A stretch of DNA of 64,000 bases from Zootoca vivipara (taxonomy: Eukaryota), in the NCBI RefSeq assembly GCF_963506605.1, contig NC_083288.1:47926001-47990000 (forward strand), read 5' to 3'. Positions 10,901 to 16,900 of this stretch are shown piece after piece (position 1 is the first letter of the stretch; the number at the start of each line of letters is the position of its first letter). A program made the translations under genes and the position numbers. The notes under the pieces were generated by a model. The model saw only the letters and a program-made list of their open reading frames with translations. It did not search any database and was not told the DNA's origin.

Positions 10901-13900
10901 CCCGTTTATCACCCCATGTTTCTTTCCCCGACAAGAAGCAGCCAGGAGTTGACCTGCTCCTCTAAACGGCCAGAATCTACACAGACAAAACTTCATTATA
11001 AGAACAGTAGGTTTAAGAACATGGGCTTGAGCTTGCTTCTCTTTTCCTCTCTCTTCCATCCCATTTTCCTCATGGGTCATGGGTTTCTTAGATAGTAGAC
11101 TGGCAAGATCATCTTAGTACTCATTTCTGTAAGCTACCAGAGTCTTTCTGGCTAAAGGGCACGGTGTAAATGCCTTAAACAAACAAACCAAGATCTCTGA
11201 AATATACTCGGAGTCAAGAGTGAATTTCATGCTCTTTATTCAGCTCATAGTCATCAAGGAGGAGAAGAGAAGACGAATGGCTCTTTTCCCCAAACCGTCT
11301 GCTTATATACATTATTTACACAATGGGCCTTGCGTGATTGGCTACTTCAGGGCTACACCTGTGGGCCAATTATATTGTGGATTGACTTCTGCCTGCAGCC
11401 TGATTGGCTGCTCCTACAGGCCAATCAGGTAGCAGATTCACTTCTGCCAGCCGCCTGATTGGCTGCTCCAGCAGGCCAATCAGGTTGCGGATTCACTTCC
11501 ACCTGGAGTTGGATTGGGTAGCTCCCGCTGATTCTGAATCCTATTGTTCTAGGATTCAGCTCAGTACATAACACCCCTCCCCTCTAAGTTCCAGTCCTGC
11601 CCAGGAAGTTGCATTCGTAGTCCCCAAGGTCTGCTGGCCGCCTCCGTGTGCGTTGTGGCCTGGGGTGTTCCTTGGTCAGGGGTTCTGGTTCTGGCTCGTG
11701 TTCCGAGGCTGCTGGCTGTGCCAGGGCTGTCTGGTCTGGCGCCACTGAACCACTAGGTTGTAGCTCTGGTTCCGGTGTCCTTCCAGCCTCGGGGCGCCCC
11801 TCTGTGCCTACTGCTTCTGCTTCCCCTGCCCACCCCTCTCGCTCTACAGGCCTCACTGCCCTGCTGTCCCCTTGGGACCCCTCTGTCCCGCTCTCCTCCC
11901 GGGTTCCTCCTGGGAATCGTCGCCGTAGCTGGTCGCAGTGGCGGCGCCAACATTGCCCCCCTTCCGTTAGTACCTCGTACGACACGGGACCGGTCACCTT
12001 GGTGACTGTGGCGGGTACCCATGCTGGGCCTGCCCCAAAATTCTTTGCATACACTGGGTCCTGGGCCACAAATGTCCGGGGGTTCCTGCCTTTCCCCACC
12101 ACTACCTCATCCTGAGCTCTGTCGGGGTGAAGTCGGTCCAGTCTAGTTGCAAGGCGCCGGCCCATTAGTAATTCAGCTGGGCTCCGGCCCGTCGTTGTGC
12201 TTGGGGTGCTGTGCTGTGCTAGAAGAAATGCGGCAAGGCGGTATTCCCAGTCCCCTTGTGTCATGCGGCGGAGGCTGTCCTTGGTGGTCCGCACCATGCG
12301 CTCCGCTTGGCCATTGGTGGCAGGGTGGAATGGTGCTGAGCGGATGTGGCGGATGGCGTTCTGCGCTGTGAAGGTCTGGAACTCCTCTGACGTGAATGCG
12401 GTTCCATTGTCCGAGACGAGGGTGTCAGGGAGCCCGTGGGTCGCAAACAGCTTACGTAGTACCCGGATGGCCGCCGCCGTAGAAGTGGATGGTACCAGTG
12501 CGACCTCCAGCCATTTGGTGTAGGAATCCACCACTATGAAGAATGTTTTTCCCTGGAAGGGGCCAGCGAAGTCCACGTGCAAGCGTGACCATGGATGTCG
12601 GGCGGACTCCCAGGGCTGGACTGGGGCCCTTGGGGGATCCGGGCGGGATTCTTGGCAGGTCTGGCAGTGTTGGACCCAGGCCTCTATCTCTCTGTCAATC
12701 CCCGGCCACCACACATAACTCCTGGCAAGGGCCTTCATCCTCACTACCCCTGGGTGTGTCTCGTGTAGGGCTGTGAGGACCCTTTTGCGGAGGGGCTGGG
12801 GAACAACAACCCTGCTTCCCCATAACAGGCACCCCTTGTGGGCCGACAGTTCATGTTTGCGGTTTGTGTAGCCAGCGAATTCTGGCCCGGGGCTGCTGCT
12901 GGGCCATCCTCGCCACACCCAGTCCAGGACCCGGGAGATGACCCTATCTTTTGTGGAATGGTGCGCAACTTCTTGTGCCTGAATGGGTCGGTCGGGAAGC
13001 AGCTCCAGGGTCATAACCTCTTGCGCAGGTGCTGGGTCGGGGCCTGTTTCTGGTAGTGGTAGCCTGCTGAGGGCGTCTGCGTGGCCCATCGCCTTCCCAG
13101 GGCGGTGGATTAGTGCATACTGGTAGCCGGCAAGGAAAATTGACCACCTGAGGACACGTGGAGACAACACTTGGGGGGTCTGCTTCTCAGGAGCAAACAG
13201 GCCAAGCAACGGCTTGTGGTCAGTCACTATGGTAAAGGGCCGCCCGTACAAGAAATCATGGAATTTTTTTACGCCCTTCACGATTGCCAGACCCTCCTTG
13301 TCAATCTGTGAGTAGTTTTGTTCGGCTGCAGCAAGCGTCTGGGAGAAGTATGCCACCGGCACCTCTCTTCCATCCGGGAGTTGGTGTCCCAGGACAGCGC
13401 CGATGCCATAGGGAGAGGCGTCACATGCCAGCACCACTGGCAGCCTCTCGTCGAAGTGTGCTAAGACCGAGTTCGAGACGAGCAAGTCCTTGACTGCCTG
13501 GAATGCGGCCCTTTGTCGCTGGCCCCACACCCAAGGGGCCCTTTTATCTAGGAGTCTGTGTAGGGGCTCCGCTACCGCTGCCTTATGGGGAAGGAAGGCA
13601 TGGTAAAAGTTCAATAGTCCCAAGAATGATTGAAGTTCGGGCTTGCTCTTGGGCGCTGGGGCCTCACAAATGGCCCGTACCTTGTCACCGGTTGGATGGA
13701 CCCCTTCTGCGTCCACCTTAAATCCCAGAAAGTCCACCTGCGGCACTCCCAGTAAACACTTTTCCCGCTTCACCTTGAGGCCCGCCGTCTGGAAACGGTG
13801 CAGGACGGAGCGGAGGCGGTCCTCAAATTCCTCTGGTGTGGGCCCGGCGATCAGTACATCATCGAAGAAGGGGGTGACGCCAGGAATCCCTTTAAGGAGA

Positions 13901-16900
13901 GAGTCCATTAGATTCTGGAATATGCCTGGTGCCACGCTAACGCCAAATTGCAGCCGCTTAACTCTGAATGCCCCTCTGTGCGTCACAATCGTCTGAGCCT
14001 CTGCTGTGGCTTCGTCCACTGGCAACTGTTGATACGCTTGGGCCAAGTCCAGTTTGCCAAAGATTTTTGACCCAGCCAGGGTGGCGAGGACATGGCTGAC
14101 CACTGGCACTGGGTATGCATGGGCCGTGAGAGCCTTGTTTATGGTGCATTTGTAGTCTGCACAGATGCGGACCGAACCGTTAGGCTTGACGGGTGTGACA
14201 ATTGGAGTTTCCCAGGGGGCGTTGGGCACCGGCTCCAGTACTCCTTGCTCCACGAGCCGGTCCAATTCCTCGTCTATGCGGGGTTTCAGGGCGAACGGGA
14301 CCCGGCGGGCCTTGTGCCTGATGGGTCGTACAGCGGGGTCTAGCTGTAGGGCAATGGGGGGTCCTGTATATCGTCCCAATGCCCCATCGAAAACCCCTGG
14401 AAACTCTTTGCATATGGCGTCCACGTCCACTTGTAAGCTAGTGCGGTTCACCCCGGTAACGGCTAGCCCCAGAGGTCCAAACCATGCCAGTCCCAGTAAG
14501 CTAACGTAGGGGCCCTTAACTACCAGCAAGTCCAATTGTTGCTTTCGCCCTCGATATTGCACCCTGAAGGTCCCCACCCCCATAGTAGGGACCTTACGTT
14601 TCTGGAAGTCCCGGAGGGTGAATGGGGCCGGCCTTAGTTTGGGACCCCCATTAGGGCACAGTTCCCTTAATGTTCGGGCCGAGATTATGGATAGAGTTGA
14701 ACCCGTGTCCAGCTCCATGCGGCATGGGGCTCCCTCTATCTGTACCTCTATATAAATTTTCTCTGTGCTGGGATGGGGCAACTGGAATACCTGGTAGTCC
14801 GTGATCTCCGTCGAATTGCCTTGGTGCATGGTGCCGTGTGACCTGGGGCTCCTGGGTCGGTCATCTGATGCTTGTCGACGGGTGAGTCGAGCCCGACACA
14901 CCCGGGCGATGTGTCCCAATTTTCTGCACTGCCTGCACTCTGCGTTGCGGAAACGACAGGTCCTCCTCTCGTGGTTCTCCCCGCAGCTTGCACAGTTCCC
15001 TCCTTCTCGTCGAGGCTGCTGTGGTGTGTGTGCTGCTTGAGTGCGCCGCTGTACTCGGTGTACTTCCTCCCTGTCAGATTCGGATTCGTCGGTGAGGTCT
15101 TCGTGGTAGACCCTCGGTTGGGATGGCGGGGACGGTCGTGCCTCTTGCGTTGACCTCTCGGCGGCTTCGGTTGCCAGGGCTTCCTCCAGAGCAATCTGGA
15201 ACGTGAGGTCTTTTTTGGCGTAGAGGCGTCGTTGCAACATCTCGTCCCTCAGGCCACCGACGAGGCCGTCACGAAGCATGTTCTCCAATTCTGAGAAGTT
15301 GCATAACCGGGCGGCTTGGCGGAGGGAGGTCACAAACCCAGTTATGGTTTCCCCCGGGGCTTGCCGCTTTGCATAGAAGGCATTTCGGCAAGCTACCACC
15401 GAGGGCTGTGGTGAGAAGTGCTCCTTCAGCCGTTCCATTATTGTTTTGTAAGAGACGGTAGCGACATCTCTAGGTGCAAGGAGAGCCCGGGCAATTTCAA
15501 ACGTCTCCTCTCCACAGACGCTGAAGAATGTTGCCCTCTTCATGGCATCGTTGGTGACTTCTTTCGCTTGCAGGAGGAAGTTGAAACGGGCGGCGTACCC
15601 TTCCCAGTCTCCTGATGCTGGTTTGAATGGCGAGAAGCTGCTGTCGGTTGCCATTCTGGGTTCCTTGGGTCCTGGAGCTGAAGCCTGGATGCACGGTGCG
15701 ATGCAGCGGTGCAGCAGGTGGCGGTGCTGCGGTGCAGTGCGTGGTGGCGGTCAGCTCAGCAGGATCCCATCCTCGTCGCCAGTGAAATATACTCGGAGTC
15801 AAGAGTGAATTTCATGCTCTTTATTCAGCTCATAGTCATCAAGGAGGAGAAGAGAAGACGAATGGCTCTTTTCCCCAAACCGTCTGCTTATATACATTAT
15901 TTACACAATGGGCCTTGCGTGATTGGCTACTTCAGGGCTACACCTGTGGGCCAATTATATTGTGGATTGACTTCTGCCTGCAGCCTGATTGGCTGCTCCT
16001 ACAGGCCAATCAGGTAGCAGATTCACTTCTGCCAGCCGCCTGATTGGCTGCTCCAGCAGGCCAATCAGGTTGCGGATTCACTTCCACCTGGAGTTGGATT
16101 GGGTAGCTCCCGCTGATTCTGAATCCTATTGTTCTAGGATTCAGCTCAGTACATAACAATCTCGCTGTCTGTTTCTGAGCCTTGTTAGAGCGCTCCAGGA
16201 ACCCACTTCAAAAGCCGACTATAAGCACACCATTTTTCTTCAGTGATGCTTATTGCCAAACGCTTTAACCAGCCTTTCTCAAAGCTCTGCCTACTTCCAG
16301 ATTCCTACTGACAGCCCTCACTCACCCTCCAATTCCCCCCCACACACTTTTTCCCTTCAAGCATTACTTTTTGGTCCCGTGGAGACAGGCCAGTTCCCAG
16401 TTCCCTTAGCGCCTCCTGCAGAAGCCGGTGGACCACTTCCCATTTCAACCAGTTTCCTCGGCACCGCTGCAATTCCTTTCTTGCCTACGAAAGAGGAAAT
16501 GTGTGGCCATTGGGGGGGGGGCAGAAGAGAGAGACAGCAGTGAGGATACCTCCTTCATAATAAAATAAACACACTCTTACAGTCTTAATGTACAAATCCT
16601 ACATTAGGCAATGGAGGAGGACCAATGCAGCTCAGAGGAAAGCCAAATCATGCAACCTGAATTCTATTCTTCTTCTTCTTCTTCTTCTTCTTCTTCTTCT
16701 TCTTCTTCTTCTTCTTCTTCTTCTTCTTTGGTGATCACTTGTAGCCGAGTAAGATTGTCTTCCATAAACATGATTTTAACAATGGGTCCCTAAGTGACTG
16801 TGGAGGCCAATTCTGGATCCACACGTCCTTCCACAGTGGGGACATTGGTTTCCAGGCGGGAGTTGATCACGGTGTGGATTTGCCGAGTGTGCCTTCCTCC

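Follow-up and report, generated by a model that had tools for sequence, protein, structure and literature searches.

An intact, unfixed Gypsy element in a HAUS4 intron of Zootoca vivipara and a family that likely rewrites its primer-binding site from tRNA-Ser(GCT)

An intact Gypsy retrotransposon lies within an intron of HAUS4 in the lizard Zootoca vivipara, and the question that it raises is whether the single insertion or the family behind it deserves attention. We analysed a 64,000-nucleotide (nt) stretch of the genome around it (NCBI RefSeq assembly GCF_963506605.1, contig NC_083288.1, positions 47,926,001 to 47,990,000), here referred to as the window. We consider it highly probable that the element is an intact Gypsy inserted in sense in a HAUS4 intron whose insertion site is unoccupied in other lizards, and that it belongs to a family of about 700 near-identical copies that likely rewrites its primer-binding site (PBS) from the priming tRNA-Ser(GCT). 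With somewhat less assurance, a vertebrate Gypsy probably inherits its PBS from the priming tRNA as retroviruses do, in which case the ~700 copies would amount to a count of the isodecoders that primed in the germline (about 2:1) and would also bear marks of heteroduplex repair and of copying past the modified A58. What merits pursuit is this primer signal at the level of the family, while the insertion in the window is real, young, unfixed and, as a single copy, ordinary.

The whole element, 4961 bp long, occupies 16158 to 11198 of the minus strand, in the sense of HAUS4. Its 18-nt PBS (15764..15781, minus strand) starts with TGG one base after the 5′ long terminal repeat (LTR) and is the complement of a GGA-type tRNA-Ser(GCT) isodecoder; in the same genome, three tRNA-Ser(GCT) genes have a 3′ end that, with CCA added, is the exact reverse complement of the 18-mer. 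Genome-wide, 701 exact LTR-PBS junctions were identified, against 0 for the reversed control. They fall into an AGG version (452, by subtraction), a GGA version (214), to which the window copy belongs, a GGG version (21), an AGA version (10) and others (4). The seven tRNA-Ser(GCT) genes found (AGG 3, GGA 3, GGG 1) match exactly the first three of these PBS versions, and no AGA-ending gene was present among 34 matches to a looser pattern. An eighth tRNA match (L033) was rejected as a gene, being the LTR-tRNA fusion L210 described below.

A PBS copied from the template RNA would remain linked to its neighbours, as expected for elements of the Ty1/Ty3 type, and neither the linkage test nor the tree test showed this. 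The linkage sample, enriched by design for rare PBS types, left out 2 of 140 fetched loci that had no LTR-PBS junction and 13 of 139 that had fewer than 600 aligned bases or more than 2% divergence. The PBS occupies element positions 378-395, and the markers at 324 and 527, which straddle it, are linked to each other in the 96 copies with the two main PBS types (r2 0.87; 59/0/3/34), as are the markers at 312 and 870 (r2 0.76). In the same 96 copies, PBS type gave r2 values of 0.04 and 0.03 with 324 and 527 and 0.02-0.05 with all four markers, and for none of the 42 common sites did r2 exceed 0.10. When the PBS was left out in building a tree of 110 copies, the 81 that carry either main type required 25 PBS changes on it, where shuffled PBS labels needed 26.7 ± 2.3 and 83 of 300 shuffles were as low as 25. 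The PBS is thus unlinked from its flanks, which argues against strict inheritance from the template.

It could still be that the PBS is strictly inherited from the template, as in Ty1 and Ty3, and that its versions are old lineages scattered by recombination of co-packaged RNAs or by gene conversion. Recombinants do exist, as 8 of 126 copies are discordant for markers 324 and 527, and reviews state strict inheritance for Ty3 in the portions dealing with it (PMC7472051, PMC5371799). However, this explanation demands a double crossover within ~200 nt in many copies while the flanks keep r2 values of 0.76-0.87. Of the nine leader-gag haplotypes with four or more copies, eight have both main PBS types, in themselves or in a one-step neighbour, as do both straddling marker classes (15:19 and 37:22). 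It also leaves unexplained the match of the versions to host isodecoders, the excess at base 19 and L210, the last two being treated next. Strict inheritance is therefore already disfavoured, and we regard it as improbable.

Other traces point to copying from the primer itself. The AGA hybrid was observed 10 times against 0.6 expected from point change, and the nearest neighbour of AGA copies has another PBS type in 8 of the 9 examined; both features would result if an AGG/GGA heteroduplex were repaired in patches. Base 19, directly after the PBS and opposite tRNA A58, is not C in 18 junctions, of which six are rearranged there or come from sister subfamilies and twelve have an intact leader. 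These twelve comprise 9 T and 3 G, compared with 1.1 T and 0.1 G expected. The modified base m1A58 (1-methyladenosine 58) is described as the plus-strand stop in reverse transcription in the part of PMC11251516 that deals with it. At locus L210 (L217:3247-3532, G000:C10 near 52877478), a sister 241-bp LTR continues into 45 nt copied in reverse from mature tRNA-Ser(GCT), CCA included, with 43 of the 45 matching, and no internal region or second LTR was found within the 10 kb fetched. L210 looks like an integrated plus-strand strong-stop product that would have run on into the primer.

We propose that a host tRNA-Ser(GCT) isodecoder would prime each round of element copying and that the plus strand would copy the 3′ end of this primer, so that the PBS would be rewritten to that isodecoder. 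The new copy would then hold an AGG/GGA heteroduplex, whose patchy repair may yield the AGA hybrid; copying beyond the modified A58 may produce the variation at base 19, and a longer run-on into the tRNA a fusion of the L210 type. The independence of the PBS, its match to the isodecoders, base 19 and L210 together indicate that the PBS is likely inherited from the primer tRNA.

Several points weigh against this interpretation. The mechanism was deduced from genome copies, not from reverse transcripts. PBS type retains a weak tie to lineage, with p<0.01 at 2 of the 42 sites; such a tie would follow from retention of the parental PBS by one half of the progeny, yet it is also a sign of incomplete decoupling. 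The PBS shares of 2:1 (AGG:GGA) disagree with the gene numbers of 3:3, the GGG copies have two possible sources, the GGG tRNA gene and patchy repair, and copies with other PBS changes went uncounted since the search patterns fix 15 of the 18 PBS bases. The contrast in the tree with nine comparison sites (1-7 changes) is biased because these sites were used in building it, which leaves the linkage test unaffected. Finally, three of the nine T copies at base 19 have one haplotype and may represent a single event.

In copies L202, L204, L205, L214 and L194 the sequence inverts at the PBS end or at most 3 bases from it and then resumes; these are likely failed plus-strand transfers, and the pattern by which they were picked favours breaks there. 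Other, unrelated LTR families of the genome (L184, L187, L191, L193, L196) share the tRNA-Ser(GCT) PBS, with three copies matching to 21 nt.

How does inheritance from the primer compare with known systems? According to the relevant section of PMC7472051, a tRNA copy is left on one strand in human immunodeficiency virus (HIV) and Moloney murine leukaemia virus (MLV), and the same route was proposed for mouse ETn/MusD from scattered PBS states; as in the lizard family, PBS versions are scattered over the element tree, a pattern there attributed to plus strands that include a copy of the primer tRNA. The lizard family differs from retroviruses in being a Gypsy without env, and its PBS is a perfect match to three isodecoders, whereas the commonest mouse endogenous retrovirus (ERV) PBS have mismatches, as given in the same section (PMC7472051). 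Yeast Ty3 shares with the lizard family the domain order protease (PR), reverse transcriptase (RT), RNase H (RH) and integrase (IN), the priming by tRNA and a target site duplication (TSD) of 5 bp. The primary work on Ty1 and Ty3 is reportedly that of Lauermann and Boeke (1994, 1997). In the passages on yeast elements, the PBS of Ty1 and Ty3 is described as strictly inherited (PMC7472051), and the Ty3 experiment is presented together with a polypurine tract (PPT) recycling model (PMC5371799). Ty3 has a bipartite tRNAi-Met PBS and its primer sequence is, in the same passages, reported not to be inherited (PMC5371799), whereas in the lizard family the 18-nt PBS is contiguous and behaves like one inherited from the primer.

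A search of the literature that reached neither subscription journals nor older Drosophila work turned up no prior account of an animal Gypsy that takes its PBS from the primer. Many textbook schemes already assume a PBS derived from the primer, so that the result supplies what was missing rather more than it contradicts an accepted opinion. Reviews generalise from yeast that Gypsy-type elements retain their own PBS, and the lizard family would be genome-scale evidence that one animal Gypsy lineage, at the least, takes the retroviral route. In a wild vertebrate, the choice of primer and the repair of the PBS could thereby be counted without an assay.

Is the insertion in the window fixed? The earlier note had proposed that it is polymorphic and that the empty site be genotyped, and we examined assembled contigs from four of the fourteen DNA or untyped runs listed first. 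In run X1, one 1333-nt contig bridges the empty site, joining 10394-11197 (804 nt) to 16159-16660 (503 nt) with a single ATCTC between them. Runs X4 and X13 have long loose contig ends whose printed letters match the empty-site sequence at window positions 11163-11192, X13 having a different organism label and 23 substitutions across its contig piece, and run X2 has 25 empty-site letters, below the 31 needed for a bridge call. The HAUS4-intron insertion is not fixed, with the empty site present in contigs of all four DNA runs examined, as the proposal of a polymorphism had implied. Contigs prove the presence of an allele and not the absence of one, thus animals with the empty site may be heterozygous.

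Two observations count against the insertion itself: no filled junction was seen among the listed contig pieces of the runs examined, so that the insertion is known from the assembly alone, and X1 may or may not be independent of that assembly. The missing filled junction is also what would be seen if the HAUS4-intron copy were an assembly error that placed a common repeat in a unique intron. We find this very improbable, because the ATCTC that the empty allele has once is perfectly duplicated (5 bp) in the assembly and because the window copy is unlike every other copy examined, the nearest differing at 2 of 4961 bases. As a weak hint in the same direction, the X2 contig begins 30 nt before the TSD end, where an LTR branch would break a 31-mer graph. 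We thus treat the insertion as genuine. At the G run at window positions 16505-16515, X1 is one base longer and X2 one base shorter than the assembly. Contigs of run X13 also contain the LTR start at other loci (1-3 differences in 31-34 bases); the LTR lineage is therefore shared, and the HAUS4 site is empty.

The family as a whole is young. All 41 LTR matches listed were at 99-100% (40 of 1305 candidates scored). Among the first 91 of the 701 junctions in genome order, 79 had two LTRs within the fetched stretch, and of these 43 had an identical LTR pair and 68 a perfect 5-bp TSD. The open reading frame (ORF) was open over at least 1350 aa in 48 of the 91, and 24 had all three features at once. 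Extrapolated to 701, this gives ~185 copies as pristine as the window copy and ~370 open-frame copies. Mean pairwise difference was 0.66% (38 full-length copies) and mean LTR-LTR divergence 0.14% (72 copies). The nearest copy found, L043, has 2 differences in 4961 bases from the window copy, and the HAUS4-intron insertion is thus among the younger ones. The active young family that the earlier note had suspected, and had wished to see pursued by a genome-wide hunt for near-identical copies, is borne out by these counts. The rarity that it implied for the window copy is not, as about a quarter of the sampled copies (24/91) are equally pristine, and identical 376-bp LTRs by themselves bound age only loosely.

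ORF changes in 113 rows comprised 33 synonymous and 10 non-synonymous shared changes, and 203 synonymous and 367 non-synonymous singletons plus 20 stops. This is the pattern of copies that would have passed through working proteins, with purifying selection on the shared changes, and then decayed. The ~370 open-frame copies, together with unfixed insertions in genes such as HAUS4, offer a natural system in which to measure how heavily an LTR burst still under way burdens a reptile. Base 11603 was tried as a sub-lineage marker and rejected, since the 12 copies sharing the base differ from the window copy by 2 to at least 148 bases; its depth in X1 as a sign of a carrier was dropped along with it. 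Eight of the 30 best LTR loci (L006, L009, L015, L019, L020, L023, L025 and L028) are solo LTRs, each flanked by a perfect TSD and with a single difference from the LTR of the window copy, which points to fast solo formation in this family. A weak bias was seen among the 68 perfect TSDs, with G as first base in 34 and C as last base in 31.

The anatomy of the window copy agrees in every part with what had been described from the letters (two 376-bp LTRs, an ATCTC TSD, a tRNA-Ser(GCT) PBS, a PPT and a 1356-aa gag-pol). The LTRs, both on the minus strand, form an exact 376-bp TG..CA repeat (5′ LTR 15783..16158; 3′ LTR 11198..11573), so that the proposed alignment returned identical sequences. 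They are flanked by ATCTC at 16159..16163 on the 5′ side and at 11193..11197 on the 3′ side, present once in the empty allele. The 3′ LTR holds CCAAT-bearing 55-bp repeats, a TATA and an AATAAA at 11240-11235, followed by a U/G-rich host flank, and the PPT adjoins it at 11574..11585 (minus strand). The single gag-pol ORF (11584..15654, minus strand; 1356 aa from the first ATG) encodes gag with two Cys-His knuckles, after which Pfam places protease first, then RT, RNase H and integrase. The Pfam scan of the ORF gave no env or chromodomain match, and there is no space for a second ORF.

To which clade does the element belong? The TG..CA LTRs, PBS, PPT and short TSD are those of Ty3/Gypsy (Metaviridae), as is the pol order, and its RT is closer to Ty3 than to retroviruses (Ty3-G, E 3.9e-88; foamy virus, 1.5e-32). 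Ty3-G is also the best solved relative. The element's ORF and all 10 relatives checked have two Cys-His gag knuckles, which may be a trait of the Mag clade. The fused ORF of 1356 aa and the length of 4961 bp lie within the Mag range of ~1330-1365 aa and <5 kb given in the fish report (PMC11117352), and the tRNA-Ser PBS and 5-bp TSD agree with the tRNA-Ser or tRNA-Leu PBS and TSD length given in the mosquito report (PMC3286476). The element is probably a Mag-clade member, as judged from structure; of the earlier designation as a Mag-type Gypsy, the Gypsy part is confirmed and the Mag part fits by structure. The Gmr1 clade, in which integrase precedes RT according to the pertinent part of PMC4131045, and the chromoviruses (V-clade) were rejected, as integrase does not precede RT and Pfam found no chromodomain.

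Fish Mag1 and Mag2 resemble the lizard family in size (~4.7-4.9 kb), in one fused gag-pol ORF of 1330-1365 aa and in the lack of env; they differ in an LTR of ~210 bp instead of 376 bp and in a set of 24 sequences compared with several hundred open copies in one lizard genome, as far as the consulted part of that report goes (PMC11117352). The mosquito Mag lineage likewise has a tRNA-Ser or -Leu PBS and mostly a 5-bp TSD in the section describing it (PMC3286476). PBS inheritance goes unmentioned in these portions of the two reports (PMC11117352, PMC3286476). Zootoca vivipara proteins named by NCBI 'uncharacterized protein K02A2.6-like' (P0001, a cluster of 133 sequences) are 98-100% identical to the ORF in all five regions, so the family is already in the gene annotation, as proteins and not as a transposon family, and our literature search found no description of it in Zootoca as a transposon family.

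The nearest relatives are lacertid (Podarcis, ~90%), which lends no support to a horizontal transfer of this family. The gecko relatives P0006, P0007, P0009 and P0010 show 79-80% identity in RT-RNase H, compared with 58-68% for snakes and 65-76% for other lacertid families. In a quick, unrooted tree of unnamed K02A2.6-like proteins, which holds no clade test, the tick proteins P0025, P0102 and P0023 (a cluster with an Ixodes scapularis protein) nest in a squamate-dominated clade (SH-like approximate likelihood ratio test 99) as sister to another lacertid family (P0031, P0032, P0036, P0043). This hints at a possible tick-lizard transfer of that sister family.

Does the insertion affect HAUS4? 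The coding span (4802..18520, minus strand) has nine coding exons and an open frame of 356 aa, and 3 of 5 scanned exons match Pfam HAUS4, one of these under the curated cut-off. Counting coding exons, exon 3 (16368..16484, minus strand) ends at codon 103 and exon 4 (10606..10746, minus strand) shows RNA depth in two of three RNA runs. The element starts 209 nt past the exon 3 donor, in sense as the earlier note had placed it (~210 nt), and ends 451 nt ahead of the exon 4 acceptor, lengthening the intron from 655 to 5621 nt. The only two AATAAA in this intron, at 15825 (15825-15820 in the 5′ LTR, 542 nt after the donor) and at 11240, are sense copies, one per LTR, so both do lie in the HAUS4 pre-mRNA, as had been claimed.

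The insertion may, with the odds somewhat against it, be a hypomorphic HAUS4 allele, in which read-through from exon 3 would end at an LTR poly(A) site or exon 3 would splice to a cryptic acceptor within the element; the predicted read-through product has 103 + 20 aa and would be without the C-terminal part matching Pfam HAUS4. Sense orientation, the 209 nt to the exon and the lengthening of a 655-nt intron favour such an effect, and in mouse, sense orientation, a short intron and a short exon distance raise the risk that an ERV poses to its host gene in the portion of PMC3735543 that treats it, although the model there was trained on IAP and ETn/MusD and not on Gypsy. The read-through frame from exon 3 reaches a stop after 20 codons, the host tract after the 3′ LTR AATAAA has a U share of 0.44 against 0.19 at the 5′ LTR, and acceptor-like sites in the element have 12-13 pyrimidines in 17, real acceptors having 10-16. 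On the other hand, the U1 small nuclear ribonucleoprotein suppresses poly(A) sites over a range that includes the 542 nt between the donor and the 5′ LTR signal, and the rate of change at CpG in the family (0.71% versus 0.085% elsewhere) suggests methylated copies.

Three raw RNA runs labelled Zootoca vivipara were checked over 8300-11780, with ~6 in 100 of each run covered. HAUS4 exon bins had depths of 0-12 and the intron bins at 10757-11107 zero, and no chimeric or truncated transcript was seen, with no known carrier among the three. LTR reads mostly differ from the window letters (e.g. at 11297) and derive from related copies. Internal element reads have G at 11603, where the window copy has A, and are thus not from this locus. 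A transcript driven by the LTR that reached exon 4 would encounter 16 upstream ATGs. We consider a loss of full-length HAUS4 mRNA that could be measured in carriers somewhat less likely than not, with the 3′ LTR poly(A) site as its most plausible route. Outside the element, a tRNA-Arg(ACG) gene was identified at window positions 2730-2802 (plus strand), between the HAUS4 3′ end and the next minus-strand gene starting near 2295.

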